DNA of 64,000 nucleotides from Candidatus Poribacteria bacterium (GCA_965242965.1 OZ251518.1:3513838-3577837), one strand, 5' to 3'. Positions 5,630-58,975 are shown, counted from the stretch's first letter. Made by a program: numbers and translations. The notes: a model not told the origin generated them from the letters alone.

Positions 5630-5837
5630 TGCAATTTGCCTCCTTTCGTTGGGCTGCGAAACCGAGGGCGGCCCGAATACCTTCCTCAGTTAAGCGCGGA
5701 TGCGCCTCAAGCAGCTGCTCGAACGTTTCGCCGGCTGATAACTTCTCCAAAATTAATTCAACCGTAAGTCGCGTGCCGGCGATAACCGGCTTCCCCATCA
5801 TGATTGAGGGGTTGGATTGTATCAATTGAGTTGTCAT
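5622..5837 (-). CDS. DUF433-family small protein (antitoxin-like)
   Basis: MTTQLIQSNPSIMMGKPVIAGTRLTVELILEKLSAGETFEQLLEAHPRLTEEGIRAAL matches the DUF433 pattern. ATG at 5837 with GAGGT 7 nt upstream; the longer ORF to 5894 lacks an RBS. Confidence 0.7.
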   Translation of the reverse strand: MTTQLIQSNPSIMMGKPVIAGTRLTVELILEKLSAGETFEQLLEAHPRLTEEGIRAALGFAAQRKEANCNG

Positions 5838-9439: not shown

Positions 9440-9905
9440 ACTGGAAGTGAGGGTGTTTCATAAATCCCCGTAGGAGAGACCTCCCGGTCTCGATGCAATA
9501 GAGCGGCGAGCCTACCGGGGCGGCGGCAGAAAGCCCCTTCATCGTAGGGCGAGGGCCTGTCCCTCGCCATCGTCGGCGCAATCCAACGCTCGCGGGGGAC
9601 AGGCCCCCGCACTACAAAAAACGTCTCTTAGGTCCGTAGGACCTTAATGTCTATAGCATGCGCGAACGCGAAGAATCCTAAGGTCCTTTAGGTCCTTAAT
9701 AGTTTTTGACATGCGGCGCGTTTTTTATTAAGGACCTAAAGGACCTTGAAAACGTAACGACACGTGTATCTATAGACATGTAGGTCCTAAAGGACCTAAA
9801 ACGTCCCCTCTTGACGCTGGCCAACGCGGGGCCTGTCCCCCGCGCTACGGGAACATCGAGACCAGGAGGTCTCTCCTACGGGGAGCCCTCGCCTTACGGG
9901 CACAG
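9440..9905. repeat. composite repeat island (E, A, B, C, B, A)
   Basis: TGAGGGTGTTTCATAAATCC, CCGTAGGAGAGACCTCCCGGTCTCGATG, REP-like CGTAGGGCGAGGGCCTGTCCCTCGCCATCG / CGCGGGGGACAGGCCCCCGCACTAC, and a full C element. Confidence 0.85.
9616..9803. repeat. C element copy 1: ~190-bp palindromic MITE-like element with 8 AGGTCC/GGACCT hexamers
   Basis: AGGTCCGTAGGACCTTAATGTCTATAGCA ... CTAAGGTCCTTTAGGTCCTTAATA ... TATTAAGGACCTAAAGGACCTTGAAAAC ... TATAGACATGTAGGTCCTAAAGGACCTAAAACG; left and right ~75-nt arms are near-perfect reverse complements. Confidence 0.85.
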
Positions 9906-17342: not shown

Positions 17343-17468
17343 GGACAACCTACGCGGGGGACAGGCCCCCGCGCTGCGGAAAAAAACGGCACGTCATCGT
17401 AGGGCTTGGGCCCTCGCATGCCACACGCGCATGCGAGCGGGTTTCCCTCGCCATCGTCCGCGCTACGC

Positions 17469-17512
17469 AAAAAACGTCTCTTGTTCTCTTCAGGTCCGTA
17501 GGACCTAAAAAC
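17469..17512. repeat. solo/empty-site-like form of the C element (AAAAAACGTCTCTTGTTCTCTTCAGGTCCGTAGGACCTAAAAAC)
   Basis: Carries the conserved left flank and only one AGGTCCGTAGGACCT palindrome, joined directly to the right-flank AAAAC. Confidence 0.6.
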
Positions 17513-17726
17513 ATAACTTGACGATGGAGATCGCGGGGGACAGGCCCCCGCGCTACGATGAAAAAAACGGCGTGCGTTACCGTAGGGCGAGGGCCTGTCC
17601 CTCGCCATCGTTCTCGGCCACGGACACTCGCGAGGGACAGGCCCCCGCGCTACGGTAAAAAACGGTATGTCATTGAACGCTCGCGGGGGCCTGTCCCCCG
17701 CGCTACCGGGAAAAAACGGCACTTCA

Positions 17727-17896
17727 CCGTAGGACCTTAATGTCTATAGCACGCGCGCCCGCCAAGAACGCTAAGGTCCTTTAGGTCCTTAATAGATTTT
17801 GCCAGGTCCACGCGTTTTTTATTAAGGACCTAAAGGACCTTGAAAAGGTGCCTGCACGTGTTTCTATAGACATTAAGGACCTAAAGACCTAAAACG
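17727..17896. repeat. C element copy 3
   Basis: CCGTAGGACCTTAATGTCTATAGCACGCGCG...TATTAAGGACCTAAAGGACCTTGAAAAGG...TATAGACATTAAGGACCTAAAGACCTAAAACG; the left arm is truncated into a B repeat. Confidence 0.8.
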
Positions 17897-18212
17897 CCAC
17901 CGTTTGACGATGGAGATTGCGGGGGACAGGCCCCCGCGCTACGGGGAAAAAACGGCACTTCACCGTAGGGCGTGGGCCTGTCCCTCGCAATCGTTCGGGC
18001 ACCCCAACACTCGCGGGGGACAGGCCCCCGCCCTACGGGAACATCGAGACCGGGAGGTCTCTCCTACCGGTGTTGCATCGAGATTCGAGGTTTCTCCTAC
18101 CGGAAGGAATCGGGCCCATCTCTGTAGTTCGGGAGCGCCCGCTCCCGAACGGGTCAGGATCGGGCGCTCCTGAACTACAGAGGTGATGACGTTGCGCGAT
18201 TTATGAAACACC

Positions 18213-32700: not shown

Positions 32701-33018
32701 TTAGCCGACAGCTGCATTAGAAAAACTCGGGGACTTTCCATAGACGACTTCATCAGTCAGTGCGGCGAGATCTACTGACACCGTTTCCCACACACCATCG
32801 GCGTAATCGGGATTATTTTTATGGAAAGCGATGTTTTTGGGAGTAGGGATGGGCTCACTGTCAAGCAATAAGCCTTCAAGATAACATTCAATGGCTTCGA
32901 CAGCTTGCGTCTGCGCATCCTTGACCGTTTCCCCGGAAGTGAAGCACCCTGGTAAATCAGGCACTGTCACTCCATAGTCACTGCCCGGGTCTTTGTGGAG
33001 AACAATGGAATAACGCAT
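32701..33018 (-). CDS. hicB: HicB-family antitoxin
   Basis: MRYSIVLHKDPGSDYGVTVPDLPGCFTSGETVKDAQTQAVEAIECYLEGLLLDSEPIP matches the HicB N-terminal domain consensus. Confidence 0.85.
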   Translation of the reverse strand: MRYSIVLHKDPGSDYGVTVPDLPGCFTSGETVKDAQTQAVEAIECYLEGLLLDSEPIPTPKNIAFHKNNPDYADGVWETVSVDLAALTDEVVYGKSPSFSNAAVG

Positions 33019-33084
33019 TAAGCACCTTTAGTTCTGATAGATGAAGGGACAGGCTCGGTGCCTGTCCCCTTTTCCAAAAAGGTT

Positions 33085-33202
33085 TTCCGGCGGCGACTTA
33101 CTTTCCCACGGGGTTGCCCCCGCAGTATCATCAGCGCAGAAGGGCTTAACGGCCGTGTTCGGGATGGGAACGGGTGGTGCCCCTTCGCTATAGCCACCGG
33201 AA
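33085..33202 (-). rRNA. rrf: 5S ribosomal RNA
   Basis: Minus strand TCCGGTGGCTATAGCGAAGGGGCACCACCCGTTCCCATCCCGAACACGGCCGTTAAGCCCTTCTGCGCTGATGATACTGCGGGGGCAACCCCGTGGGAAAGTAAGTCGCCGCCGGAAAACC; ends approximate within ~3 nt. Confidence 0.9.
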
Positions 33203-33292
33203 AGGTGTTTTGTCATATATTGTATTGACAAGAAAATTTGACAATTGCATAGATTAGGTGAGGGTGTCGGTAGAAGAAATAATAAAGAAGTT

Positions 33293-36283
<2,991 letters not shown>

Positions 36284-36378
36284 ATAAGGTGATATTATTA
36301 TTCTACCGATTTACCCTCTCTATGCAATTGTCAAAGAACCCCGCCTTGCACAGGAGCGGGCGCTCCCTTACAAGACGA

Positions 36379-36451
36379 TGGAGATGAGCGGAGTTGAACC
36401 GCTGACCTTCTGGTTGCAAACCAGATGCTCTCCCAACTGAGCTACACCCCC
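36379..36451 (-). tRNA. tRNA-Ala (anticodon TGC)
   Basis: GGGGGTGTAGCTCAGTTGGGAGAGCATCTGGTTTGCAACCAGAAGGTCAGCGGTTCAACTCCGCTCATCTCCA; G3:U70 Ala identity pair present; CCA not encoded. Confidence 0.9.
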
Positions 36452-36469
36452 AAGTGGCATTACTCTTTA

Positions 36470-36901
36470 AGTATACCACAAAAAAACGCATTTGTCAAAT
36501 TTATTTTTCAAAAAAACGGATTTGCTGACACAAACCCTCGCGATGGTATATAGTATACCACGAAAACTGCGCAATGTCAAATTAAAATCAAATTAAAATG
36601 ACAATTTCGTCATCGTTGAGGTTAATTATACCACAAAAAAGATGCAATGTCAAATTAAAATGACGATTTCTGCGAATTTCTGCTGAATTACGCCACAAAA
36701 AGTGCGCGATGTCAAATTAAAACGACAATTTCGTCATCGTTGAGGTTAATTATACCACAAAAATGACGCAATGTCAAATTAAAATGACATTTTCTGCGGA
36801 ATTCTTGTTAATTCTGCCCCAAAAAGTGCGCGATGTCAAATTAAAACGACAATTTCGTCATCGTTGAGGTTAATTATACCACAAAAATGACGCAATGTCA
36901 A
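36470..36901 (-). promoter_or_regulatory. array of seven tandem sigma70-consensus promoters directed at tRNA-Ala/23S/5S
   Basis: Plus-strand coordinates of -35 (TGTCAA) and -10 (complement of the -10 hexamer), spacer exactly 17 in every case. P1: 36493-98 / 36470-75 (TATACT). P2: 36575-80 / 36552-57 (TATACT). P3: 36648-53 / 36625-30 (TATAAT). P4: 36710-15 / 36687-92 (CGTAAT). P5: 36772-77 / 36749-54 (TATAAT). P6: 36834-39 / 36811-16 (CAGAAT). P7: 36896-901 / 36873-78 (TATAAT). AT-rich UP-like TTTTAATT precedes each -35. Underlying ~125-bp tandem DNA repeats. Confidence 0.75.
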
Positions 36902-36903
36902 AT

Positions 36904-38859
36904 TTATTTAAAAAAAGTGCTCGTATCCCACAGCAGAATGGTGCCATCGAAACTGCCGCTCGCCAAAAGCGCGCCATCCGGCGAAAAGGCAAGAGACTGA
37001 ATGTCAGTGGAATGTCCCCAGAAAGTGGCGATGTTCTCACCCGTTGCAACCTCCCAGAATCTGATGGACATCTTATCCGTGCCTTGCCACGCTGCCCCCG
37101 ATACGAGATACCTGCCACATGGCGAAAATGTCAACGCCTCCGGTCTTTGGCATCCTTGCGGCAGGCATATCACCATGAGCGTTTCATACCTTTTCGCGTC
37201 CCATAGCCAAATTTCCCGGAAAATTCCACCGGCAATCACGTTCCCGCATGGCGAAAATACAACAGTCTTTGGAACAGCATTGTATTCTATCCGTTTAAGT
37301 GCGCGTTGAATTTGACGCGCATCGCCTTTATATTTCTCTAAATCTTTGGGACGGTGAGTGGACAGTTCCGTGATGAGCCGCCAATCGTCAACATCCCAAA
37401 GGAACGCTTTCGTATAGGGAGACGCGACAGCGAGGGACTTTCCATCAGGCGAAAAAGCGATGTGCCAAATCCAATCCGATTTTCCGTTCAGCGTCTGTAG
37501 CGCGGTTCCGTTTTGTAAATCCCACTCTATCAGGCCGCCGCCACCATCTGCGCTCACTAATCGTTCCTCTGTTGGAGAGAACGCGACAGCATAAATCGGT
37601 TTTTCCTGATGTCCCGTTAACTTCGCAATCGGCGCGTCGGGTTTCTCAACGTCCCACACCCTGACTATGCCATCGTAGGCACTGGCGGCGAGTTTGTTTC
37701 CACACGGCGAAAAACTGATTGAACGGATTGTCATCGGTTCTTCTGCGAAAACGACTTGCGGTTCTCGCCGCGCAACATCCCAAAAGATTATGTCTCCTAT
37801 CCAATGGCCGGCAGCCAACTTTTTTCCATCTGGGGAGAATTTGACGCAGCCACAGACATAGGGATGCTTCCGAATAAGGGCTTCGTGCGGCGTGGCCTCG
37901 CCGATATTCCACACCTGAATTGTGCGAGGACCGGCGATGGCCACGTGCGACTCTGTGGTTTGCGAAAAATGCGTGGCATGCGAAATTTCGCGCAGCTCTT
38001 TATGTTCCAACGCCGCTAATTTTTTGTTGCGTTCCATATCCCACACAATGAGCGTGGTGCCGCTGACCTCGGATGCGAGCAAAGTTCCCTTTGACGAATA
38101 AGCGAATCTCTTCCGGCCATTTGTCGAGGAGACGGTTGAAGGTTCTCCGGTTTCCGCGAGTCGGTTGACATCCCACTTCCGCAGCGTGCCCTCTCTGTCC
38201 GCTGTCGTCAGGAAAGTCCCGCACGGCGAGAAGAGCAGTGTTGTTACCGATGCCGTATGTCCGGTGAGACAAGCGATGCGTTCACCCGCTGTCAGATTCC
38301 AGACAGAAAAGGTGTTTTCAGCTGTCGCGCATGCGAGCAGAACGCCGTCCGGAGAAAAGGCGATGGGAATCCTCGGAAGAGGCCCCTTTTTAGGGGTATC
38401 GTCAACGGGGAATTCCGCAAGCGGTTCTCCGGTTTCGGCGTGCCAGACGTAAACAGTATCGTAGCGGCCCCCGGAACACGCTAAGCGTTGTCCGTCGGCT
38501 GAAAAGGCGAGCCGAGATACCTTATTCGCCTGTTTCCGGGTTCGTTCCATTTTGGCGATGCGTTGTTGGCTTGGCATATCCCAGACGCTCACGCCACCGT
38601 CCACATTGCCGGTAGCAAGCAAATGCCCGTTCGGCGAAAATGTCACCGCAGAAACCCCGCGTTCGGTATCCCATAACGCGAACGGTTCCATCGTGGACAC
38701 CTCGTAGAGCCAGAGCCCGATACCACTTCCGACGGCGAGAGTGTTCCTGTCTGGAGAGAATGCCAGTGCCCGCACCAACCCTCTGCCCAATCGTGCAATC
38801 GCGCCATCGGGGAGAATCCATGTGGTAATATCGCTATTTGCGCGATGCTGATTTTCCAC
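36904..38859 (-). CDS. WD40-repeat beta-propeller protein
   Basis: At least 12 WD40 repeats (e.g. GHSTDIQSLAFSPDGALLASGSFDGTILLWD). The start is uncertain: GTG at 38859 is preceded by GGAGG 6 nt upstream and avoids overlap with the LamG gene; the ATG-start ORF extends to 39075 but overlaps the upstream gene by 59-197 nt. Confidence 0.7.
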   Translation of the reverse strand: MENQHRANSDITTWILPDGAIARLGRGLVRALAFSPDRNTLAVGSGIGLWLYEVSTMEPFALWDTERGVSAVTFSPNGHLLATGNVDGGVSVWDMPSQQRIAKMERTRKQANKVSRLAFSADGQRLACSGGRYDTVYVWHAETGEPLAEFPVDDTPKKGPLPRIPIAFSPDGVLLACATAENTFSVWNLTAGERIACLTGHTASVTTLLFSPCGTFLTTADREGTLRKWDVNRLAETGEPSTVSSTNGRKRFAYSSKGTLLASEVSGTTLIVWDMERNKKLAALEHKELREISHATHFSQTTESHVAIAGPRTIQVWNIGEATPHEALIRKHPYVCGCVKFSPDGKKLAAGHWIGDIIFWDVARREPQVVFAEEPMTIRSISFSPCGNKLAASAYDGIVRVWDVEKPDAPIAKLTGHQEKPIYAVAFSPTEERLVSADGGGGLIEWDLQNGTALQTLNGKSDWIWHIAFSPDGKSLAVASPYTKAFLWDVDDWRLITELSTHRPKDLEKYKGDARQIQRALKRIEYNAVPKTVVFSPCGNVIAGGIFREIWLWDAKRYETLMVICLPQGCQRPEALTFSPCGRYLVSGAAWQGTDKMSIRFWEVATGENIATFWGHSTDIQSLAFSPDGALLASGSFDGTILLWDTSTFFK

Positions 38860-38878
38860 GCGCGCCCTCCGCGTTTGT

Positions 38879-39712
38879 TTACGGGGTATACCCGCGTTTG
38901 ACGTTTGCCCAAGTGGTTGCGAGTTTGTCAACCGCATCGACAGCAAAAGTGCCAGAGATGTTTTGGAGCACCTCTGCCTCGGTGAGTGCCTTATCATAAG
39001 CGCGGACGATGGCGAATGAACCGTTGAAAGTCCGCCGCCGTTCGTCGAAGGAATTCGCACCGATGGAGATGTCATTTATCGGTAACGCCTTGTCAAACTC
39101 AAAACCGGCTTGGCTGCTGACTTCTTCGCCATCTTGATATGCGACAATCGACTTGTCGTTAGTGCCGACAATCGTAAGCCAGGTCCACACGCCTTCCTCA
39201 AGTTTGAGGTTAAGCGGTTGAACGCCCTGTTTCGCACCTTGCGCATGGACAGAGATGTCCAAGTTTTGCCCGTTGACTATCCACAGCCGAATTCCCTGTT
39301 TCCCTTCCCGCGGGCTGTTTTGGAACCCGGCGAAGTGGTGTTCCTCCACAAAGAAATCGCCGTTGCGTCGGCAAAGGAACTCAAGCGTCCAGTCCTCAAA
39401 AAAGAGAGGCGGATTTTTTGCCGGCGGACCGCCGAAGGTTTGATGGGAATCCTTGGTTGTGTAATACTTCGCGTTCGGCAAGTCGATGCCGAGTGCAGGG
39501 ATTTTGATTGGCCCTTCCTCAAGTTCGGGTGCTTCGTCCGCGGCGGGTAATTCGCCTTCAGCCGTGCCGAGGTTTGTCCACGCGTCTTTGTGGCCTGGAT
39601 TATCAGCGGCATCGAGGTAAAGCACCGGGTCTGGAACGATATTAGCATTTGCGATGTTGCACGCGAGGGATAGGCAAAGTATCGTCGTGCAAAGTGAAAT
39701 AAGTGTTCTCAT
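38879..39712 (-). CDS. secreted LamG/concanavalin-A-like lectin-fold protein
   Basis: Signal peptide MRTLISLCTTILCLSLACNIANA; jelly-roll signature ...FNGSFAIVRAYDKALTEAEV. Confidence 0.6.
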   Translation of the reverse strand: MRTLISLCTTILCLSLACNIANANIVPDPVLYLDAADNPGHKDAWTNLGTAEGELPAADEAPELEEGPIKIPALGIDLPNAKYYTTKDSHQTFGGPPAKNPPLFFEDWTLEFLCRRNGDFFVEEHHFAGFQNSPREGKQGIRLWIVNGQNLDISVHAQGAKQGVQPLNLKLEEGVWTWLTIVGTNDKSIVAYQDGEEVSSQAGFEFDKALPINDISIGANSFDERRRTFNGSFAIVRAYDKALTEAEVLQNISGTFAVDAVDKLATTWANVKRGYTP

Positions 39713-39812
39713 TTGAGTCTTCCTCCTAGGGTTTGGAAAATAGATATGCCTCCGTTTCTGCTTGAAAACTATTATAACAGCATTTCAACATTTATTCAAG
39801 AGATAAAATAAG

Positions 39813-40560
39813 GGAATTTCATATTTCGATGTCTTTTTGGTAGGAGAGACCTCCCGGTCTCAATTTGTCCGTAGCGCGGGGGCCTGTCCCCCGCGATCGC
39901 AGCATGGCGAGGGACAGGCCCTCGCCCTACGGTGCGGGGGGTGGCGTTTTCGCGATCGCTGCATGGCCTACGATGAAGGGGGGAGGCGTTTTTTTTTCGT
40001 ATCGCGGGGGGGCTCGGATGCCAGACGCGCATCCGGGCTGGTTTCCCCCGCGAGTTCCATCGTCATGATGTGTGTTTCCCTCTCTGTAGTTTGTGATCGC
40101 CTGATCACAAACAGGTTAGGATCAGGCAATCCTGACCTACAGGGCCTGGCGCGAGAACGATGACGAGGGCCTGTCCCTCGCCATCGTTCGCGCTGCGGAA
40201 AAACCGTCTCTTGTTCTCTTCAGGTCCGTAGGACCTGAATGTCTATAGCAGCCGATACGCAAAATGCTCTAAGGGCCTTTAGGTCCTTAATAGCTTTTGC
40301 CAGGGCCGCGTGTTTTCTTATTAAGGACCTAAAGGACCTTGACAACGGTACGACACGTTTTTCTATAGACATGTAGGTCCTAACGGACCTAAAACGCCAC
40401 CTTGTGACGATGGAACAACGCGGGGGACAGGCCCCCGCGCTCCGGTAAAAAACGCCATCCCCTCACCGTAGGGCGGGGGCCTGTCCCTCGCCATCGTCCG
40501 CGCAATCCAATCCTCGCGGGGGACAGGCCCCGCGCTACGGATGCATCGAGACCAGGAGGT
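39813..40560. repeat. repeat island inside the 16S-23S insertion (E-like, A, B x3, D, B, C, B x2, A)
   Basis: Seen directly; ORFs 39837..40163, 39865..40068 and 40363..40803 (N-terminal part) are artefacts. Confidence 0.9.
40197..40397. repeat. C element copy 4
   Basis: AAAAACCGTCTCTTGTTCTCTTCAGGTCCGTAGGACCTGAATGTCTATAGCAG...TATTAAGGACCTAAAGGACCTTGACAAC...TATAGACATGTAGGTCCTAACGGACCTAAAACGCCAC. Confidence 0.85.
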
Positions 40561-40669
40561 CTCTCCTACCGGGATGCATGGATACCCGGCGCGCCTACCG
40601 GCAATTCCCCGTTTTTTGACTGTAGCTGAAGAAAACGCAATCGAAATCAGCAGCCATTGTGCATGTCTC

Positions 40670-40840
40670 CTAGCGAGTGTTTTCTGTAACGGCCGAGGGA
40701 TGTGGGCAGGTAACTTGCCCGGGTCTGTAATCACAATAACCTCTCCACCGGCATCCCTTCGTAACTGTTTGAGTCTTTTGACACCGGCTTCGTTCTGAGG
40801 CAACGATGAGAACCAGGAGAAAAACGATAAAGGCTTTCAT
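40670..40840 (-). CDS. possible small secreted Cys-containing peptide (56 aa)
   Basis: MKAFIVFLLVLIVASERSRCQKTQTVTKGCRWRGYCDYRPGQVTCPHPSAVTENTR; GGAG 8 nt upstream of the ATG. Below the 60-aa ORF-track cutoff; lies between a repeat island and tRNA-Ile. Confidence 0.3.
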   Translation of the reverse strand: MKAFIVFLLVLIVASERSRCQKTQTVTKGCRWRGYCDYRPGQVTCPHPSAVTENTR

Positions 40841-40988
40841 AAAACACTCCTTTTAAGAGCGACGGGCCATCGGGCAATTTGAAAAAACGAGGGGACAACG
40901 AGTAGGAAAGAAGGTATCCGTTCAGAAAACAACGACGATTTGAAAAGGGACCTTCCTTGAAAACCGCGCGATGTCAGTTTGATGTTGA

Positions 40989-41062
40989 TGGGCTTATCTG
41001 GAGTCGAACCAGAGACCTCGCGCTTATCAGGCGCGCGCTCTAACCGTCTGAGCTATAAGCCC
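40989..41062 (-). tRNA. tRNA-Ile (anticodon GAT)
   Basis: GGGCTTATAGCTCAGACGGTTAGAGCGCGCGCCTGATAAGCGCGAGGTCTCTGGTTCGACTCCAGATAAGCCCA; perfect 7-bp acceptor stem. Confidence 0.92.
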
Positions 41063-41160
41063 GAAGTAATGTTCTTGAAAGTTAAATAGTTTCAGTGAGT
41101 GTGCCCGTTAAGGTTCAGAGCGTGAACAGATGATTTGTGTGAGAAAGCATCTGTTGTATG

Positions 41161-42712
<1,552 letters not shown>

Positions 42713-42868
42713 CCACAAAAGTATTGAAGCACATCTCAAACGCAGGTAAGTGGAAAATCATACCCACGTCTTAATTGAGGTGCACTCACAAGCTATAAAA
42801 TAGGCACGTCACGTTCACTATTTAACTTTCAAAGAACAACTTCACCTTTCGTTGAAAGGTTATCTTTA

Positions 42869-42897
42869 ATTATACCCAATAAAAATCCGTTTGTCAA
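42869..42897 (-). promoter_or_regulatory. consensus sigma70 promoter for 16S rRNA (TTGACA-N17-TATAAT)
   Basis: Minus strand TTGACAAACGGATTTTTATTGGGTATAAT (-35 = 42892-42897, -10 = 42869-42874, plus coordinates), ~150 nt upstream of the 16S 5' end. A-tract inverted repeats AAAAAGACCTTTTTTTT / AAAAAAAAGGTCTTTTTTTT lie upstream at 42935-42988. Confidence 0.75.
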
Positions 42898-43189
42898 GTT
42901 AAAATGATAAAAAAATGCAGAATTTTGCATAAAAAGACCTTTTTTTTACGATTTTTTCACTTTTTTTCAAAAAAAAGGTCTTTTTTTTTACGATGCGCGC
43001 GGTTTGCGTGCAAAAAAACGCGCATTTTGCGCGCGCGACGGACCAAAAACGCGCGCGGGTGAACAATACGCAAAATAAATTGGAATCAGGATTTTTGGGA
43101 TATGGGGTTCTTTTTCCTCGCGCGCAGGGCTCATTTCTCGCTCACAACGTCTGCATCGCAAAGATTCCGGGCGTTTTTCAGAAGATCGA

Positions 43190-43470
43190 GTCCGGCGAGG
43201 GCCTGTCCCTCTCCCTACTTTTGGAAATCGCGCATCCGCGAAAAACGTCTCTTCAGGTCCTTTAGGTCCTGCATGTCTATAGTAGCCCCGACGAAAAAAA
43301 CACTAAGGTCCTTTAGGTCCTTAATATATAGCAGACGTAACCGATGAGAAGCATTAAGGACCTAAAGGACCTTGAAGAAGCGGGTGCCTGCGCGTGCTAT
43401 AGACATTCAGGTCCTACGGACCTAAAGAGCGCGCCTTTTCATCAAGTAGGCATCTTCCCTGAAAGACTCC
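43190..43470. repeat. repeat island with C element copy 5 (43241..43433)
   Basis: A half-B repeat (GGCGAGGGCCTGTCCCTC) then AAAAACGTCTCTTCAGGTCCTTTAGGTCCTGCATGTCTATAGTAG...CATTAAGGACCTAAAGGACCTTGAAGAAG...TATAGACATTCAGGTCCTACGGACCTAAAGAGCGCG. Confidence 0.85.
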
Positions 43471-44334: not shown

Positions 44335-46590
44335 CTAGATTTTGCCCATCGCTTTCAACATCCGTTCGGGTGACATCGGAAGTTCTGTCATCCGAATGCC
44401 GATGGCATCGTAGATGGCGTTGGCGATGGCCGCGGGCGGCGGCACAATCGGCACCTCGCCGACACCGCGCACGCCATACGGATGCCCCGGATTTGGCACC
44501 TCAACGATGACAGCGTCTATCATCGGAAGATCCAAGCATGTCGGCATGCGATAGTCAAGGAAGCTCGCGTTCGTCATCGTGCCTTCGGCATTGTAAATGT
44601 ATTCCTCATTCAATGCCCAGCCGATGCCCTGCACAACGCCGCCCTGAATTTGCCCCTCAACGTAACTCGGATGGATGGCTTTGCCGGCATCCTGCGTTGC
44701 GGTGTAGCGGAGGATCTGCACCTTGCCAGTTTCCTCGTCTACCTCAAGATCGACGATGTGGGTTGCGAACGCGCCGCCGGCACCCGGGGGATTCACGGCA
44801 GCACTGCCGACGACGGGACCGCCTGTCTCACCGAGTCGCGCCGACAAATCGCGGAAGCTAATCTGCTCTTCCTTGCCGTTGATGCAGGAGAATTCGCCAT
44901 CGGCGAACTGCACATCTTTCTCATCAACCTCCCAGAGTTTCGCCGCGCGCGCAATCATCTGTTTCTTGACATCTTGCGCGGCTTCATAAGCGGCGTATCC
45001 GGTCGCGAACGTCGTGCGGCTACCGCCTGTCACTGCAGTGTAACCGACAGAATTGGTATCAACAACGCTGGGATTGACAGCCTCCGCTGGGATGCCAAGC
45101 ACTTCCGCCGCCTGCATAGCGATGGACGCGCGCGTGCCGCCGATGTCCGTGGAACCTTCAACGAGGTTAATCGTGCCATCGGGATTGACGTTGATGGTGA
45201 CGCTGGATGCCAAGCCGATGTTGAACCAGAAACCGGATGCGACGCCGCGTCCGTGGTGCTTCTTGCCATTCGGCGAGGTGTAGTGCGGATGCTGTTTCGC
45301 CGCCTCAACGCTTTCAATGAAGCCGATGCGCGGGAAAACCGGTCCGTCTGCACGTTTGACACCCTCTTTTGCACCGTTCATGATGCGGAATTCCAACGCA
45401 TCGATGTTCAGTTTCTCCGCGAGTTCATCAATGACAGTCTCTGAACCGAACGCGGCGTTGGTTGCGCCGGGCGCGCGGTAAGGCGCGGTTTTCGGTTTAT
45501 TGACGACGACATCGTAGCCGTCAATCAAGACATTCTCAATGTTATAGGGTGCGAAGATACACATCGCGCCCGCGCCGACAGGTGAACCGGGGTACGCGCC
45601 TGCTTCAAAGTCAAGGCGTGTCTGCGCCGCGGTGAGTTTGCCGTCCTTCGTCGCGCCCATTTTGACGCTGATGAAAGACGCGGGTGTCGGGCCGGTGGCT
45701 TCAAACACGTCAGCGCGGTTCATCAACACCTTAACAGGCCTGCCTGTCTTCTTCGCGAGTAGTGCCGCGACCGGCTCCACATAGACGTTGATTTTGCCGC
45801 CAAATCCCCCGCCAATTTCCATCGGCACCACCTTAATCTTGGAGATGGGATACTGGAGGATTTCGGCGAGTTGTTCGCGCACGGTGAACGCGCCTTGCGT
45901 GCTACACCAAACGGTGAGTTGTCCGTCGGGGTTATAGAGCGCGGTGGCGTTGTGCGGTTCGATGTAACCTTGATGGACAGTGCCGGTGACGAACTCGCGT
46001 TCAATGACAACATCCGCTTCTGCGAACCCTTTCTCAATATCGCCTTTCTGGTGCTGGAGGTGACTGGCGATGTTGCTCGGTTTTTCAGCGGTTTCGCCCA
46101 TCGAGCTCGTCTTCAGGTTTTCATGGACGAGCGGTGCATCCGGCTCCATCGCTTGACGCACCTCTAAGACAGGCGGCAGCACTTCGTATGCCACATCAAT
46201 AAGCGCGCACGCTTCTTCCGCGATGTGTGCATTCGTCGCGGCGACAGCGGCGATGGCGTGTCCCTTGTAAAGTGCCTTGTCGCTAGCGAGGATGTTGTCG
46301 CAGAGGTATTTGAGATTGACTGCGCCTTCACCCAAGTCTGCGATTTTGTCTGCCGCTGTAGGCAAGTCTTCGGCGGTGACAACGGCTTTGACACCGGGGT
46401 ATGCCTCGGCGCGGCTCGTGTCAATAGAGAGGATGCGTGCATGTGCATGCGGACTGCGGAGCACGATGCCGTGCAGGAGGCCGGCGGTATGGAAATCGGC
46501 ACCATAGAGCGCACGGCCGGTGACTTTATCAACACCGTCGTGTCGGATGGGCCGGGTTCCGATGACTTTGTATTCTTTCTTTTCGGGCAT
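44335..46590 (-). CDS. xanthine dehydrogenase/aldehyde oxidase/CoxL-family molybdopterin-binding large subunit
   Basis: ~750 aa with the Ald_Xan_dh_C/C2 domain pattern (KVTGRALYGADF...; GGGFGGK...). Start set at ATG 46590 (MPEKKEYKVIG) with GGAGG upstream. Confidence 0.85.
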   Translation of the reverse strand: MPEKKEYKVIGTRPIRHDGVDKVTGRALYGADFHTAGLLHGIVLRSPHAHARILSIDTSRAEAYPGVKAVVTAEDLPTAADKIADLGEGAVNLKYLCDNILASDKALYKGHAIAAVAATNAHIAEEACALIDVAYEVLPPVLEVRQAMEPDAPLVHENLKTSSMGETAEKPSNIASHLQHQKGDIEKGFAEADVVIEREFVTGTVHQGYIEPHNATALYNPDGQLTVWCSTQGAFTVREQLAEILQYPISKIKVVPMEIGGGFGGKINVYVEPVAALLAKKTGRPVKVLMNRADVFEATGPTPASFISVKMGATKDGKLTAAQTRLDFEAGAYPGSPVGAGAMCIFAPYNIENVLIDGYDVVVNKPKTAPYRAPGATNAAFGSETVIDELAEKLNIDALEFRIMNGAKEGVKRADGPVFPRIGFIESVEAAKQHPHYTSPNGKKHHGRGVASGFWFNIGLASSVTINVNPDGTINLVEGSTDIGGTRASIAMQAAEVLGIPAEAVNPSVVDTNSVGYTAVTGGSRTTFATGYAAYEAAQDVKKQMIARAAKLWEVDEKDVQFADGEFSCINGKEEQISFRDLSARLGETGGPVVGSAAVNPPGAGGAFATHIVDLEVDEETGKVQILRYTATQDAGKAIHPSYVEGQIQGGVVQGIGWALNEEYIYNAEGTMTNASFLDYRMPTCLDLPMIDAVIVEVPNPGHPYGVRGVGEVPIVPPPAAIANAIYDAIGIRMTELPMSPERMLKAMGKI

Positions 46591-46664
46591 TGCGAATTTC
46601 CTCCGATGCGCGCTTAGCACGCGCGCGTTTGCGGTTGAAGCACCGCGGGAGACAGGCCCCCGCG

Positions 46665-47132
46665 CTACGCTGATGCCGCGTCAAGCACGGCACGGACGAT
46701 TTTATCGTAACCGGTGCAGCGGCACAGATTGCCGGCTAACCAGTATCGAACTTCGTGCTCCGTCGGGTTCGGGTTGGTATCCAGCAGTGCCTTGGCACTC
46801 ATGATAAACCCGGGTGTGCAGATACCGCACTGGAGCGCGGCGTTTTCGAGGAAGGCATCCTGAATAGGGTGCAGCTTATCCGCTGCTGCGAGGCCTTCCA
46901 CAGTTTCGACAGCTTTGCCCTCAGTCTCTACGCCGAGGACGAGGCATGAATTGACCAGGGTGCCGTCTAAAATGACACTGCAGGCACCACAATTCCCATT
47001 ATTGCATCCCTCTTTTGCACCGGTGAGATGAAGTTCATCTCGGAGAACTTCCAAGAGACTCTGCCGGGCTTCGCAGAGGAATTCAACGGGTTCGCCATTA
47101 ATCTGGGTTTGAACGTGCGTTTTTCTCGCCAT
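46665..47132 (-). CDS. (2Fe-2S)-binding small subunit of the molybdoenzyme (CoxS/XdhC-type)
   Basis: CNNGNCGACSV...CLVLG and CGICTPGFIMSA...C motifs. Confidence 0.88.
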   Translation of the reverse strand: MARKTHVQTQINGEPVEFLCEARQSLLEVLRDELHLTGAKEGCNNGNCGACSVILDGTLVNSCLVLGVETEGKAVETVEGLAAADKLHPIQDAFLENAALQCGICTPGFIMSAKALLDTNPNPTEHEVRYWLAGNLCRCTGYDKIVRAVLDAASA

Positions 47133-47183
47133 AGTGTGGGCTCCTTTTTTGCGCGCTTGGAAAGCACGGATTCGGTTGATAGG

Positions 47184-48059
47184 TTAGACATCCAAGATTC
47201 GCTGAATGGCTCCCTTGAGGGCGCGCCGGGTTAGCACACCGACGAGGTGCGTTCGCTGTTCGGCGGTGCCGCGCATATCGCTGATAGGACGCGCGATGGC
47301 TTGCGCCGCTGCGGCGGCTTCGTCAATCGCTTCGTCAGAAATCTTTTTCCCAGCAAGTAACGCGCTCGCTTCCTCTGCAAAGAGCGGTGTCGGGGCAACG
47401 GCTGCCAATGCGATGCGTGCAGAGACAATCGTCTCTTTCGCCGCGTCAAGCGTTACGGCTGCGCCCGCGCCGACGACAGCGATATCCATCTCATTGCGCG
47501 GGATAAACCGGAGGTAATAGGAACTGGAATTGCTCGGCGGCTGCGGTATCTTGATTTCAACCAGCATTTCGCCTTCTTCCAGGACTGTCTGTCCGGGCCC
47601 CGTGCAGAATGCCGCGGCTGGGAGTTCTCTCTCACCGTCGGGTCCGGCGATAACGCAGGTAGCGTTAAGAACGATGAGCGGCGGGATGCTATCCGCTGCA
47701 GGCGAAGCGTTACATAAGTTACCGCCAACGCAAGCGCGTCCCTGAATCGCGGTGCCGCCGATAATTTTGGTTGCGTCAATTAGGCCGGGGAAACTCTCGC
47801 AGATGGACTCCGTGCCGTAAATCCGATGACACGGCACCGCGGCACCGAGTCTCAGTCCATTTTGCGAGTCGTGCGAGAGGACATTCACTTCGGGGATGGC
47901 TTTGATGTCCACCATCCAGTCCACGTCGCGCTTTGCCTCCCTGACTTGCACGATAATGTCTGTGCCGCCAGCGAGGACGCGGGCTTGTTGTCCTTTTTCT
48001 TTCAGCACCGCTACGGCTTCGGGCACCGTTTGCGCGGCGACATATTCAAATGCTTGCAT
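47184..48059 (-). CDS. FAD-binding medium subunit of the molybdoenzyme (CoxM/XdhB-type)
   Basis: LAGGTDIIVQ... FAD-binding PCMH-type domain and a CO-dehydrogenase flavoprotein C-terminal domain. Confidence 0.85.
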   Translation of the reverse strand: MQAFEYVAAQTVPEAVAVLKEKGQQARVLAGGTDIIVQVREAKRDVDWMVDIKAIPEVNVLSHDSQNGLRLGAAVPCHRIYGTESICESFPGLIDATKIIGGTAIQGRACVGGNLCNASPAADSIPPLIVLNATCVIAGPDGERELPAAAFCTGPGQTVLEEGEMLVEIKIPQPPSNSSSYYLRFIPRNEMDIAVVGAGAAVTLDAAKETIVSARIALAAVAPTPLFAEEASALLAGKKISDEAIDEAAAAAQAIARPISDMRGTAEQRTHLVGVLTRRALKGAIQRILDV

Positions 48060-48177: not shown

Positions 48178-48743
48178 ACTGAGGGTGTTTCATATTTCGA
48201 TGGCTTCCCAGTAGGCGAGTTCTCCCGGTCTCGATTTCTTCGGGTAGGAGAGCCCTCCTGGTCTCGATGCAGTTTGTCCTCTGTCCCTCGCCATCGTTTG
48301 CACACTCAACGATCGCGGGGGACAGGCCCCCGCGCTACGGTAAAAAAACGCCCCGGGTTACCGTAGGGCGAGGGCCTGTCCCTCGCCGTGCCTGTTCCTT
48401 GTAAAAGACCGTAGTTCGGGAGCGCCCGCTCCCGAACCGTTTGTGATCAGGCGATCACAAACTACAGAGGTGGAAACACACATCATGACGATGGAGTTCG
48501 CGGGGGAAACCCGCTCGGATGCGCGGCTGGCATCCGAGGGCCCCCGCGCTACGATAAAAAACGCCATCCTTTCACCGTAGTACGTGGGCCTGTCCCTCGC
48601 CATCGTCCGCGCAATCCAACGCGCGGGGGACAGGCCCCCGCGCTACGGGAACATCGAGACCAGAGGGCTCTCCTACCGAGGATCTATTGAGACCGGGAAG
48701 TCTCTCCTACGGGTGTGCGTCGAAATATGAAACACCCTCATTT
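48178..48743. repeat. repeat island bracketed by 26-nt inverted terminal copies of the E motif
   Basis: Left ACTGAGGGTGTTTCATATTTCGATGG (48178-48203); right CGAAATATGAAACACCCTCATTTAAG (48718-48743). Interior: A x2, B pairs, D palindrome, B pairs, A x2. Confidence 0.9.
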
Positions 48744-50498: not shown

Positions 50499-50890
50499 TT
50501 GTCTGAGGGTATTTCATATCTCGATGGCTTCCCCGTAGGAGAGCCCTCCCGGTCTCGATGCGAGCGGTGTCCCCGTAACCGAGCTCTCCTGGTCTCGATG
50601 CAATTTGTCCTTGTCCCTCGCTATCGTCCGCGTAATCCAACGCTCGCGGGGGACAGGCCCCCGCGCTACGGTTGTCAAGGCCGCTTCCTTTCATCGTAGG
50701 GCGAGGGCCTGTCCCTCGCCATGCTTCGATCCACCGAACGCTCGCGGGGGACAGGCCCCCGCGCTACGGTAACGGGAGGGGTTCTTAGTCGAAAAACGCC
50801 GTCCTTTCCCGTAGGGCGAGGGCCTGTCCCTCGCCATGCTGCGGTCTACCGGACAGTCGCGGGGGACAGTCCCCCGCGCTACGGTACTGT
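50499..50890. repeat. repeat island (E, A x3, B pairs x3)
   Basis: CTGAGGGTATTTCATATCTCGATGGCTTCCCCGTAGGAGAGCCCTCCCGGTCTCGATG... then REP-like pairs. Confidence 0.85.
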
Positions 50891-52960
50891 GACATTAATG
50901 CCATAAAGCGCAGCCACCTCCCGTTCCAGCACAACCTCAAGCGCAGATACATCCGCCGCAAAATCCGCGCGTTTCGCAGACAGAATCGCATCAACTAACG
51001 CAACAACCGGTGCCTGCCGCGCCGGCGAAACATCTGGAATCGGCAGTTTCTTCCAATCATCCGGATAGAGGTGGATATTGCTCCGACGATTTGCCATTAA
51101 GAAATCACGCGCTACGTTTGAATTCATCACGCCGAGCAGGAACTTCACCGAGAATCGACGACTCGTTTTTTCCAATTCTTCGCGCCGCGGGAGTTCCGGA
51201 CGCTGAGGCTTTTCATCACGATAACGAGCCTTCTGTTTTATCGAGCGGTTCCGAACCCCTGCTAAATCGTGCCAAAGCACGAAGGACCAGGCTGATTGAT
51301 TATGACGGAGATGCTGAGCATCGTAGGATACCTTCAATTTCTCAACGCCAGCCGCCATGTCCGCCGAAATTAATCTTTCCGCAACTTCGTATAATTCGGG
51401 AAACGTTGTTGACGTGAATAAGGCAGGCGCGCGTTCTGTCCCCCACTCCAGCCATTTCTTTGTCGCGGGCAGCCAGCGCGCGAGATGTTTGCCTTCCACA
51501 AACGGTTTCGGGTGAGTTGCGTCTTGGATATCTGAAACCAAATCCCGCACGCCAAACGCGCCGCGCGCGTGCTTGTTCGCATGAACTACCATCCCAACAG
51601 AGATATAGCAGAGGGTTTCAAGCGTCACCGTTGGAACAGAAAACTGCTGAACCTCGGTATCTTCCGGAAAAAAGAGACGATAGGTGAGGTTCCGTTGTGC
51701 GTCGGTTGGCAATAGAGTAACGTTCCCAAATTCGGGCCCGTGCAGCCTGCGTTCCGGTTGATGCTCGCGCCCATCAACTCTCTGAAACAGATAGGTGATA
51801 TTCCGCACGGCGGCATCGAAGATTCGGATATCGCGGAAGAAGTCAAGGCGACATATCCGACTATTCTCCCGAAACCACTCCTGCGATTTCTGGGCATACT
51901 TCGCGTGACAATAGGCATCCGAAACGATGAATGTCGTGAAACCTCCCGGCTTGAGCAGTTTGTAGCTGCGCTCAATAAATGGAATGTAGAGATCCCACTT
52001 TCCGAAGAGGGTTTCATACTGCGCGCTATCCTTAATTGCCTGACGCAACGCCTGTTGCCCCGGTGCATCCGCTCTCACGTAAGGCGGATTACCAATCGTA
52101 ATATCAAATCCTGCCGAAATCCCAAACATCCATTCCGCATTGAAGAAATCAGCAGAGGCGTTCTGATTATACGGGTCCCACGCTGCCAACTCTTGCGCCG
52201 TGCCACTCGGTAAGCCTAAGTCAGCAAGCAACGCGCTTATCTCCGTGCGCAAACGTTTATCCTGCCGGCGATACCGCGCCTTCGTCCGAAGCGTGCGAGC
52301 CGTGAAATGACGACGACGCACCTCTGATAGCTCCCGCTCCTTCTCGCTGATGTCGGGGCTGCGGAGAGACAATTGTCCTTCAATGCCGAGCAGCGTGTTC
52401 GCCGCAACGAACTTCGTTTCCAAATTCGGCAACGGCCGCACACCGCGATTCGCCTGTGTTTCGTCTAGCCGCTGATCGACGATAAGCGAGATGAAGAAGC
52501 GCAGCTTGGCAATCTGCGTCGCAATCGGCTGGATGTCCACGCCGTAGATGCAGTTTTCTATCAGATAGAGTTTCCTGCCGTAGTCCAGTTCGTTCCGTTC
52601 AAACGCGTCGTTGATGCTCTCTATCTCGCTTTCAAGTTCGTGGAGCGTGTTTTCGCGGAACGTGCTGTCGTCAATCTGTTCGGCGGCGGCGATGGTGCGG
52701 CGCACCCTGTCTATCTGGCGTTGCCGCCACTGTGCATTGCCCGGGTCAAGTTTACCAAGCAGGAAGACGAGTTTGTGCAGGATGCCCATCGGGAAGGCAC
52801 CGGAGCCGCAGGCAGGATCGAGGATTTTGAGCGCGTCAATGGCGGTGATGAGGCACTCGGTTTCTGCTTCGGTGAACCGATGCGGTTCATCGGTATAGGC
52901 GAGGAGGTGGCGCAGGGCTGCGTCCAAATCGGTGGACTTTACCCCCCCCCTTCGCGTCAC
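50879..52960 (-). CDS. MmeI-like Type IIG restriction-modification enzyme, C-terminal part (gamma-class N6-adenine methyltransferase motifs I and IV plus target-recognition region); frameshifted from the upstream ORF
   Basis: ILDPACGSGAFPMGIL (motif I) and ITIGNPPYVRAD (motif IV). The ORF begins with GTG inside a G9 run; it is out of frame by 1 nt with 52887..54515. Confidence 0.7.
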   Translation of the reverse strand: MTRRGGVKSTDLDAALRHLLAYTDEPHRFTEAETECLITAIDALKILDPACGSGAFPMGILHKLVFLLGKLDPGNAQWRQRQIDRVRRTIAAAEQIDDSTFRENTLHELESEIESINDAFERNELDYGRKLYLIENCIYGVDIQPIATQIAKLRFFISLIVDQRLDETQANRGVRPLPNLETKFVAANTLLGIEGQLSLRSPDISEKERELSEVRRRHFTARTLRTKARYRRQDKRLRTEISALLADLGLPSGTAQELAAWDPYNQNASADFFNAEWMFGISAGFDITIGNPPYVRADAPGQQALRQAIKDSAQYETLFGKWDLYIPFIERSYKLLKPGGFTTFIVSDAYCHAKYAQKSQEWFRENSRICRLDFFRDIRIFDAAVRNITYLFQRVDGREHQPERRLHGPEFGNVTLLPTDAQRNLTYRLFFPEDTEVQQFSVPTVTLETLCYISVGMVVHANKHARGAFGVRDLVSDIQDATHPKPFVEGKHLARWLPATKKWLEWGTERAPALFTSTTFPELYEVAERLISADMAAGVEKLKVSYDAQHLRHNQSAWSFVLWHDLAGVRNRSIKQKARYRDEKPQRPELPRREELEKTSRRFSVKFLLGVMNSNVARDFLMANRRSNIHLYPDDWKKLPIPDVSPARQAPVVALVDAILSAKRADFAADVSALEVVLEREVAALYGINVTVP

Positions 52961-58407: not shown

Positions 58408-58975
58408 TTGAGGGTGTTTTATAACTCGCTCAACGTTGCGGTGACAGGCCCCGCGCTACGGTAAAAAAACGCCTCTCCTTTACGTAGGGCGAGGGCCTGT
58501 CCCTCGCCATGCAGCGATCGCGGGGGACAGGCCCCCGCGCTACGGGAAAAAACGGCACTTCACCGTAGGGCGAGGGCCTGTCCCTCGCCATGCCACATGT
58601 GCATGCGAGCGGGTTTCCCTCGCCATCGTTCGCTCGCCGGAAAAAACGTCTCTTGTTCTCTTCAGGTCCGTAGGACCTTAATGTCTATAGCACGCGCGCC
58701 TGCAAAGAACGCTAAGGTCCTTTAGGTCCTTAATAACTTTTGCCATGCGGCGCGTGTTTTTTATTAAGGACCTAAAGGACCTTGAAAACAGCGCGACACG
58801 TGTTTCTATAGACATTAAGGACCTAAAGGACCTAAAACGCCACTGTTTGACGATAGAGATCGCGGGGGACAGGCCCCCGCGCTACGATAAAAGACGGTTC
58901 TTGAGAAAACGCGGGGGACAGGCCCCCGCGCTACGGGAACATCGAGACCAGGAGGTCTCTCCTACCGGACAATGG
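58408..58975. repeat. repeat island (E, B pairs x3, C copy 7, B x3, A)
   Basis: ATTGAGGGTGTTTTATAACTCGCTCAACGTTGCGGTGACAGG at the left end; C element at 58641..58842. Confidence 0.9.
58641..58842. repeat. C element copy 7
   Basis: AAAAAACGTCTCTTGTTCTCTTCAGGTCCGTAGGACCTTAATGTCTATAGCACGCGCG...TATTAAGGACCTAAAGGACCTTGAAAAC...TATAGACATTAAGGACCTAAAGGACCTAAAACGCCAC. Confidence 0.85.

Follow-up and report, generated by a model that had tools for sequence, protein, structure and literature searches.

We analysed a stretch of 64,000 nucleotides (nt) from a sponge-associated Candidatus Poribacteria bacterium (GCA_965242965.1, OZ251518.1:3513838-3577837), hereafter the window, in which the ribosomal RNA (rRNA) locus lies on the minus strand in two halves: the 16S rRNA gene followed by tRNA-Ile(GAT) and, beyond a gap of 4536 nt, tRNA-Ala(TGC) followed by the 23S and 5S rRNA genes. 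A preliminary description had reported this order, with the break exactly between the two spacer tRNAs, and the placement of the RNA genes with Rfam and ARAGORN bore it out, the coordinates given there being right to within a few nucleotides. The features of the locus are listed in the direction of the rRNA genes, with the means of detection in brackets.

42869-42897, minus strand: promoter-like site of the 16S rRNA gene, TTGACA-N17-TATAAT (12/12), with A-tract-rich DNA before it (motif match)
42827-42838, minus strand: boxA-like element TGTTCTTTGAAA in the 16S leader (regular expression)
41169-42719, minus strand: 16S rRNA gene, full length (Rfam, 1537.8 bits)
41063-41168, minus strand: 16S trailer, which pairs with the 16S leader (42720-42868) as a processing stem (duplex computation)
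40989-41062, minus strand: tRNA-Ile(GAT), CCA not encoded, with the break point at its 3' end (Rfam and ARAGORN)
40573-40854, minus strand: gene debris, the remnant of an older gene with an FtsX-like C-terminal relic, containing a 56-amino-acid (aa) open reading frame (ORF) (comparison with relatives)
39839-40570, no strand assigned: cluster of palindromic elements resembling repetitive extragenic palindromic (REP) sequences and miniature inverted-repeat transposable elements, with 43-nt inverted repeats at its bounds (repeat search)
39771-39799, minus strand: promoter-like site for the LamG gene, TTGAAT-N17-TATAAT with TG (motif match; also before LamG in locus L126)
38879-39712, minus strand: LamG (Laminin_G_3) gene, 277 aa, with a signal-peptide-like N-terminus (Pfam, E 1e-12)
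36904-38859, minus strand: WD40-repeat protein gene, 651 aa, with a GTG start 19 nt past the LamG stop codon (Pfam WD40, E 2e-68)
36470-36901, minus strand: seven promoter-like units in tandem at 62-nt spacing (Tandem Repeats Finder and motif match)
36518-36537, minus strand: terminator-like hairpin followed by seven T residues, which separates the proximal unit from the six distal ones (computed)
36377-36452, minus strand: tRNA-Ala(TGC) (Rfam and ARAGORN)
36329-36340, minus strand: boxA-like element GGTTCTTTGACA in the tRNA-Ala/23S spacer (regular expression; conserved across the split and linked clades described below)
33290-36286, minus strand: 23S rRNA gene (Rfam)
33085-33201, minus strand: 5S rRNA gene, with a REP-like hairpin directly after it (Rfam)

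The canonical order of 16S, tRNA-Ile, tRNA-Ala, 23S and 5S on one strand is retained. The spacings are 106 nt between 16S and tRNA-Ile, 4536 nt between the two tRNAs, 90 nt between tRNA-Ala and 23S, and 88 nt between 23S and 5S, which places the end of the 16S gene 4882 nt from the start of the 23S gene (41169 to 36286). A canonical operon has a short spacer free of protein genes at this point; here the 4536 nt between the spacer tRNAs carry the LamG and WD40 genes. Read in the rRNA direction, the gap holds gene debris, the repeat cluster, a promoter-like site, LamG, WD40 and the promoter array before tRNA-Ala is reached, and a permissive Rfam scan of it returned only the two tRNAs and no further known RNA. 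The 23S-5S unit is single within the 64-kb window. That the host belongs to the Poribacteria is confirmed by the names of the LamG homologues (Candidatus Poribacteria) and by a 16S gene 88-99% identical to Poribacteria 16S genes; two primer sequences that we take to be Poribacteria-specific also match the window 16S gene perfectly.

Comparison loci are denoted by handles such as L083. An 18-mer from the 16S gene, one of the two primer sequences, was scanned across reference genomes and hit mostly Candidatus Poribacteria records, many of them complete chromosomes. About 70 Poribacteria 16S loci were compared, and 8-kb tiles around each 16S gene were annotated by blastn and ARAGORN; the related Poribacteria chromosomes measure 4-7 Mb. 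In a linked group of 23 loci, with 16S genes 88-90% identical to that of the window, the operon is canonical: tRNA-Ile has an encoded CCA, tRNA-Ala follows 9 nt later, and then comes 23S. In a split group of about 44 loci, with 16S genes 93.6-99% identical to that of the window, tRNA-Ala never follows tRNA-Ile. The bipartition between the two received 100 of 100 bootstrap replicates in a neighbour-joining analysis of full-length, non-chimeric 16S genes (29 split and 21 linked), in which the window grouped with L043 at 100 and with L043 and L083 at 97. The split clade leaves the linked form exactly at the CCA tail of tRNA-Ile (GCCCA/TCAAC in the window, GCCCACC/TTTTTT in L083 and GCCCAC/TTTT in L007, the slash marking the point of departure). 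Gaps seen in full measure 394 nt in L083, 1666 nt in L114, 1683 nt in L029, 3580 nt in L104, 4183 nt in L118, 4536 nt in the window, 7169 nt in L001 and 12237 nt in L130. Because the window's clade is always split while its gaps range from 394 nt to 12.2 kb, the break is old and the contents of the gap turn over, and we regard the break as an old, shared character of this whole Poribacteria clade. The picture of an operon interrupted by one 4.5-kb insertion, with break point and cargo both visible, that the preliminary description had drawn is not supported: on comparison with related genomes it is the split that is clade-wide, the gap contents differ among relatives, and the gap of the window is a mosaic of parts that differ in age.

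Two public contigs of metagenome-assembled genomes, L010 (JAGFCA010000084.1) and L025 (JAJDUH010000023.1), were considered as a sign of an older or recurrent split and rejected, both having chimeric 16S genes: a 5' part of one lineage is joined to a 3' part that, like the DNA downstream of it, belongs to the split clade. In L010 the first ~1100 nt of the 16S gene are 95-99% identical to the linked clade, and its 3' end and downstream DNA are 96-99% identical to the split-clade locus L103. The linked-clade tiles were also checked for WD40 genes beyond 5S, a possible sign of movement of the 23S block, and gave no WD40 hit. Other irregularities were noted around the 16S gene. L038 (OZ219753.1, 339-3722) has a full 16S gene and, 1.2 kb later, a partial second copy (model positions 874-1520), and L121 (OZ244821.1) has no tRNA-Ile within 5.5 kb downstream of 16S. 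In a third sub-clade (L007, L023, L055, L096, L097, L123, L008, L021, L037, L039, L089 and L098) the spacer between 16S and tRNA-Ile is enlarged to 1.1-2.9 kb and, in at least L007 (4740-5873), L039 and L098, contains a co-oriented gene for a secreted protein of ~257 aa.

Both halves of the locus are preceded by promoter-like sites of one type, whereas in a canonical operon promoters stand only before 16S and yield one precursor transcript. In the window the site before 16S stands 178 nt from the gene, and one TTGACA-N17-TATAMT-type site occurs 147-216 nt upstream of 16S in 50 of 51 Poribacteria loci, for which reason we take this type to be the likely rRNA promoter of the lineage. The strict form of the motif occurs six times on both strands of the 64-kb window, for an expectation of ~0.015 from base frequencies; one occurrence lies before 16S and five before tRNA-Ala. 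The five belong to the tandem array, which starts 2 nt past the WD40 stop codon and ends 17 nt before tRNA-Ala, its -35 hexamers beginning at 36901, 36839, 36777, 36715, 36653, 36580 and 36498. The array as first described is real: it has seven units, five of which match the strict consensus and carry an extended -10 (TGTGGTATAMT; scores 11-12 of 12), and these have the full make-up of an extended -10 sigma-70 promoter (TTGACA, a 17-nt spacer, TGn and TATAAT). In the other two, at 36839 and 36715, the -10 hexamer is degenerate.

Wherever tRNA-Ala can be seen in a split locus, between one and six TTGACA-N17-TATAMT sites stand before it (the window and L001 have five strict sites, L126 has six, L083 and L114 have three each, and L029, L104, L118, L128, L129, L130 and L131 have one each). 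Across 25 distinct units from eight genomes, information is near-maximal at the -35 hexamer, at an upstream AAAATWAAT, at a T-run with TGTGG and at the -10 hexamer, and low in the remaining spacer and the flanks, a pattern expected if selection acts on promoter function. The -35 hexamer of the proximal unit starts 43-50 nt before tRNA-Ala in five genomes (46 nt in the window). These conserved elements suggest that the 23S-5S half has dedicated promoters, as had been proposed for the window. The arrays themselves are built differently, from a 124-nt superunit with 93% identity in the window (Tandem Repeats Finder) and from 136-nt units in L083, and since they differ between lineages they were amplified independently and recently.

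On the origin of these promoters there are some leads. The proximal tRNA-Ala promoter and the 16S promoter of the window share AAA after the -35 and TTAAAGA after the -10 hexamer; the idea that the former is a duplicate of the latter was set aside as a weak lead, the likeness not being kept in other genomes. In L083 the 136-nt promoter repeat units (5275-5668) contain the tRNA T-arm-like fragments GAAGGTCAGTAGTTCAAAT and GGGGGTGCGATTCCTCCC, a hint at an origin from duplicated DNA that contained tRNA sequence. Several non-proximal units have the palindrome GGTATACTATATACC lying across their -10 hexamer (in the window, for example, at 36552-36580 in unit P-C), and the palindrome is found at non-proximal units in four genomes (the window, L126, L083 and L114); it could be the operator of a dimeric regulator.

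Each half also has what rRNA maturation would call for. Pairing of the 16S leader with the trailer gives a duplex of -69.5 kcal/mol, where shuffled sequences give -36.0 +/- 4.9 kcal/mol, and the flanks of 23S (36287-36376 and 33202-33289) form a processing stem of -59.9 kcal/mol, against -25.9 +/- 3.7 kcal/mol for shuffles, while cross-pairing controls between the 16S and 23S flank sets stayed at shuffle level. With a processing helix of its own for each rRNA, neither half should need the other, or co-transcription with it, for maturation. The boxA-like element of the 16S leader, TGTTCTTTGAAA, resembles what we take to be the Escherichia coli boxA consensus, and a regular-expression search found no boxA-like element in the gap. 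Processing stems and boxA-like elements are in themselves normal for bacterial rRNA operons.

The identities first given to the two protein genes in the gap, LamG and WD40, are confirmed by their Pfam matches. LamG is a conserved Poribacteria protein with 240 homologues, of which the best 120 are 76-99% identical and named Candidatus Poribacteria; the L126 LamG protein is 96% identical to that of the window. Elsewhere the gene lies far from the rRNA locus. The chromosome of the sister lineage L083 has an 84% identical LamG at ~0.29 Mb, adjoining the ATP synthase operon, and its 16S gene at ~2.03 Mb, so that the two are ~1.75 Mb apart. The ATP synthase context recurs in another genome with an 84% identical LamG, the context differs in two further genomes, in one of which LamG and 16S are ~2.5 Mb apart, and no rRNA genes were found at the LamG loci of four other relatives. 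As LamG sits elsewhere in relatives, only the window's species group has it in the gap. The borders of the moved segment could not be traced, homology being limited to the ribosome-binding site and the coding sequence. The secreted protein of ~257 aa encoded between 16S and tRNA-Ile in the third sub-clade ends in KLAATWGAIK, resembling the C-terminus KLATTWANVK of the window LamG at an overall identity of 19%, and the two may share a sorting tag.

WD40 genes recur in the gaps. L001 encodes a 651-aa product at the same position as the window WD40, and the window protein falls into a cluster with 27 WD40 ORFs from related genomes, all located after tRNA-Ile; orthology is not established, since its identity to them is only 30-49%. 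L104 has one WD40 gene between the tRNAs, L128 has one that ends just before the promoter and tRNA-Ala, and L130 has five (626-768 aa), all in the rRNA direction, with no other ORF of at least 150 aa. In L126 an OpuAC gene adjoins the promoter array where the window has WD40. Other split-clade gaps hold a gene for an extracytoplasmic function (ECF) sigma factor followed by WD40 genes, or sulfatase genes. In the sponge-symbiont literature WD40 proteins are grouped with the eukaryote-like repeat proteins. The ECF sigma factor gene is the first ORF after tRNA-Ile in L063, L088, L102 and L105, and with the WD40 genes that follow it may form a partner module. Among further gap contents, L118 has a DDE transposase gene (ORF at 1091-2323 nt after tRNA-Ile, in gap coordinates), and members of the third sub-clade (L120, L008, L021, L037, L053, L074, L089, L098 and L124) have tandem pairs of ABC-2 permease genes (~500 and 470 aa) after tRNA-Ile, co-oriented with the rRNA genes.

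The remaining parts of the window's gap are repeats and gene debris. The repeat island reported between the tRNAs exists (39839-40570, ~730 nt of GC-rich palindromes) and is not peculiar to this place: the core motif GGGCCTGTCCCYCGC is matched 62 times in the 64-kb window, where none is expected, which marks the island as part of a genome-wide family. Further examples, with composite copies of ~300 nt, lie at 9553-9843, 11759-12296, 17354-18027, 48315-48637 and 58493-58925, and copies bracket both rRNA modules, upstream of 16S (43199-43440), in the gap and, as a hairpin, after 5S (33035-33066). The motifs AAGGACCTAAAGGACC and CTATAGACAT mark a second type of repeat, present in the gap (40229-40382) and upstream of 16S (43260-43430). 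The small cysteine peptide gene of 56 aa first proposed beside the island (40670-40840) did not hold up. Although its start codon region is conserved in L043, it is a mechanical ORF only: the window lacks ~370 nt that L043 has at this point, the ORF spans the deletion junction, and the frame conserved with L043 (PQNEAGV.RL.QLRRDAGGEVIVITDP) overlaps it in a different frame. L001, with ~3 kb of extra DNA after tRNA-Ile, keeps other fragments of the same old gene, among them an FtsX-like piece. To judge from these relatives, the segment 40573-40854 is gene debris and not a peptide gene.

From the observed anatomy, clade distribution, promoter-element conservation, processing stems and turnover of content, we infer that the promoters fire, that the two halves are separate transcription units, and that the promoters were gained before genes accumulated. 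The locus is probably a two-module one, broken once at the 3' end of tRNA-Ile, whose gap has become a hot spot of turnover. An ancestral operon of 16S, tRNA-Ile, tRNA-Ala, 23S and 5S would have come apart at that single point into a first module with one consensus promoter, a boxA-like leader, 16S and tRNA-Ile, and a second module with its own promoters, tRNA-Ala, a boxA-like spacer, 23S and 5S. Once the second module had its own promoters, selection on the spacer would have relaxed, and genes, repeats and pseudogenes could then have gathered and been exchanged between the modules. In the window lineage the promoters of the second module would have been multiplied by tandem duplication to five strong and two degenerate copies, and the gap would have come to hold a decaying older gene, a cluster of the genome-wide repeat, a LamG gene found elsewhere in the sister genome and one WD40 gene. 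L083 illustrates a minimal state: an imperfect hairpin with a T8 run comes 30 nt past tRNA-Ile, and three promoter repeats then lead up to tRNA-Ala.

Several points weigh against this two-module account. The main support for promoters having come first is L083, and its short gap could have arisen by secondary deletion. The tree is built from 16S only, by neighbour joining with midpoint rooting, and the linked state is presumed ancestral from the general bacterial norm, with no outgroup. The reference-genome loci are 8-kb tiles, so that most gap lengths are lower bounds. The account leaves unexplained why the 23S half should have five to seven promoter-like sites and 16S one, and why GGTATACTATATACC overlaps -10 hexamers; the hairpin with its T7 run inside the array is awkward if all seven units drive 23S. 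A search under strict rules of the first 160 nt past tRNA-Ile yielded no canonical intrinsic terminator in any of 46 split loci. The gap genes of the window are co-oriented with the rRNA genes, as are 96 of the 103 ORFs with 130 aa or more that follow tRNA-Ile, and a search upstream of the L130 WD40 array gave no consensus promoter.

The last of these points, the missing terminators, the co-orientation and the lack of a promoter before the L130 WD40 genes, make read-through from the 16S promoter possible. The locus might then still be one operon, in which polymerase initiates at the 16S promoter, is modified at the boxA-like site and continues across tRNA-Ile, LamG and WD40 into tRNA-Ala and 23S-5S, the array merely boosting 23S and the embedded protein genes riding on rRNA transcription. 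The shared direction of the five WD40 genes of L130 would suit such a transcript, as would the lack of a terminator in the 2 nt that separate the WD40 stop codon from the first -35 hexamer. Co-orientation, however, is only modestly above background, because ~80% of the genes in the rest of the window also lie on the rRNA strand, and the promoter-like sites before tRNA-Ala are strong, conserved and repeatedly amplified, which speaks against read-through as the source of 23S. LamG moreover has a promoter-like site of its own, the repeat cluster holds GC-rich hairpins and T-runs on the rRNA strand, and in L083 a hairpin with a T8 run stands 30 nt past tRNA-Ile. On balance we think a single operon unlikely. 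A specific form of it, a super-operon in which WD40 (with LamG) between 16S and 23S is transcribed by antitermination-modified read-through from the rRNA promoter, appears distinctly doubtful; the lack of terminators after tRNA-Ile and of a promoter for the L130 WD40 genes and the strict co-orientation are compatible with it and do not prove it. If it were true, WD40 and LamG expression would be coupled to ribosome synthesis, and the array would restore the balance between 16S and 23S.

The promoter array on which the two-module account leans might instead be a tandem repeat of another kind, such as a satellite, a protein-binding array or a product of slippage, that matches sigma-70 sites by chance, with 23S transcription starting elsewhere. 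A spacing of 62 nt is below the footprint of RNA polymerase, a terminator-like hairpin lies within the array, the palindrome GGTATACTATATACC covers the -10 hexamer in several units, and two units of the window have degenerate -10 hexamers. Yet across eight genomes it is particular positions that are conserved, namely the -35, the extended -10 and the -10, while the remainder varies, and a site of the same type precedes 16S in all but one of the 51 loci. A single-copy promoter also persists without any array in L029, L104, L118 and L130, and the proximal unit keeps its fixed distance from tRNA-Ala in five genomes, so that we consider a chance resemblance very unlikely.

Still more improbable is that a single mobile segment or genomic island of 4.5 kb integrated recently at the 3' end of tRNA-Ile in an intact operon. 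The 3' end of a tRNA gene is a classic integration site for genomic islands, the break is precisely there, with the clades parting at the CCA, and the gap of the sister genome lacks LamG. Against this stand a whole clade that is split, with very different gap contents, and a segment that is a mosaic of parts with different histories. The 22-nt 3' end of tRNA-Ile matches only itself in the window at up to three mismatches, leaving no att-like scar, and LamG and WD40 do not stand out from the flanks in GC content (0.50-0.58). Among gap ORFs of at least 100 aa only LamG and WD40 have family matches, neither of them integrase- or transposase-like, and no integrase or recombinase was seen among the family-matched ORFs of the window's gap, shorter ORFs having had no dedicated integrase profile search.

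The junctions of the split recur in L001 and L126, which were assembled from different samples of the European Nucleotide Archive (ENA) than the window. L001 (ENA ERZ26050812) has 16S, tRNA-Ile, 7169 nt, tRNA-Ala, 23S and 5S in the same order and is ~98% identical to the window over LamG, WD40, the promoter array and 23S, and L126 (ENA ERZ25070167) reproduces the 23S-side junction with LamG, OpuAC, the promoter array, tRNA-Ala, 23S, 5S and HicB. In a related lineage, the 186-kb Joint Genome Institute contig L130 spans its 12.2-kb gap completely, and the same split is present in dozens of complete Poribacteria chromosomes. Although rRNA genes are often misassembled, and two public contigs of the comparison set do have a chimeric 16S, the chance that the rRNA halves were wrongly joined to LamG and WD40 is negligible because these independent assemblies share the junctions, and misassembly, which the preliminary description had named as a way in which its claim could fail, is excluded for practical purposes.

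Upstream of 16S in the window lies a three-gene molybdopterin dehydrogenase operon (FAD-binding, 2Fe-2S and Mo-cofactor subunits; 44335-48059), separated from the 16S upstream region by a terminator with hairpin and T-run (43018-43036); an Eco57I-like restriction-modification methylase gene (50879-52960) is found farther upstream, and a HicB antitoxin gene (32701-33018) directly follows 5S. The 761-aa ORF upstream of 16S was considered as the ortholog of a ~762-aa thioredoxin/DsbD-like gene that precedes LamG elsewhere, which would have meant that the 16S module had moved in between the DsbD-like gene and LamG. This was rejected because the ORF is a molybdopterin dehydrogenase large subunit and has no similarity to the DsbD-like protein.

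The type of arrangement is already known, from Borrelia, from bacteria with unlinked rRNA genes and from Wolbachia and Buchnera. Among described loci the Borrelia rrs-rrl region comes nearest in anatomy. The rrs-rrl spacer of B. garinii measures 4617 bp and contains trnA, trnI, mag and cof (PMC2688082); tRNA-Ala adjoins 16S in Borrelia, tRNA-Ile is inverted, 23S-5S forms a tandem duplication, and a second, degenerate 16S is present in some species (PMC4370689). The window resembles it in having a multi-kb spacer between 16S and 23S (4882 nt) with both tRNAs and two intact protein genes. In contrast to Borrelia, the window keeps the canonical order and strand, with tRNA-Ile beside 16S and tRNA-Ala beside 23S, has a single 23S-5S unit (within the window) and has a tandem promoter array before tRNA-Ala. 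Brewer et al. (bioRxiv 10.1101/705046; ISME J 2020) called rRNA genes unlinked at a spacer of >1500 bp and found the trait conserved along lineages, most unlinked pairs being >6 kb apart with a mean of ~410 kb (bioRxiv 10.1101/705046). At 4882 nt the window is unlinked in this sense and the trait here also follows a lineage, but the Poribacteria halves stay close, ordered and on one strand, with fully observed gaps of 0.4-12 kb. Poribacteria are not mentioned by Brewer et al. (bioRxiv 10.1101/705046). A search for an earlier statement of unlinked rRNA genes in Poribacteria found nothing in the set of papers that was searched. An unlinked 16S gene on the first poribacterial fosmid was reportedly described by Fieseler et al. 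in 2006.

In Wolbachia 16S and 23S-5S are separate transcription units, and in Buchnera the 16S operon contains ORFs and no 23S (summarised in PMC7761764). The Poribacteria locus is like that of Wolbachia in having 16S apart from 23S-5S, which here may be transcribed separately; however, such splits are usually ascribed to genome degradation in obligate endosymbionts with small genomes, and the related Poribacteria chromosomes measure megabases as given above. Control of rrn operons of the E. coli type involves tandem P1 and P2 promoters, an UP element, a boxA antitermination site and RNase III processing stems. The window shares consensus sigma-70 hexamers at 17 nt, A/T-rich upstream DNA, boxA-like GTTCTTTGA elements in leader and spacer alike, and long helices of leader with trailer around both 16S and 23S. 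It differs from the E. coli type in having one promoter before 16S and five to seven before tRNA-Ala at 62-nt spacing, inside the former spacer. The repeats recall REP sequences and bacterial interspersed mosaic elements, which are interspersed short palindromic repeats, in that short GC-rich palindromes are clustered at many sites of the window, often as inverted pairs, but the sequence family in the window is specific to this lineage. New features may be the distribution of the split in the Poribacteria, the exact break point, the graded series of gaps, the promoter arrays and the repeated occurrence of WD40 genes.

It is common for rRNA genes to be split or unlinked, and how operons come apart and why this is tolerated are open questions; Brewer et al. 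described the pattern, not the path. The clade studied here may offer a graded series, from tRNAs 9 nt apart, through a gap of 394 nt (L083) with only a terminator-like hairpin and three promoters, to gene-filled gaps of 1.7-12 kb. Such a series suggests an order of events in which the downstream half first gains a promoter and only then the spacer takes up genes, and the locus offers concrete promoters, processing stems and boxA-like sites with which this can be tested. For work on sponge microbiomes, amplicons that run from 16S through the spacer into 23S will miss or misjudge this abundant clade of symbionts.

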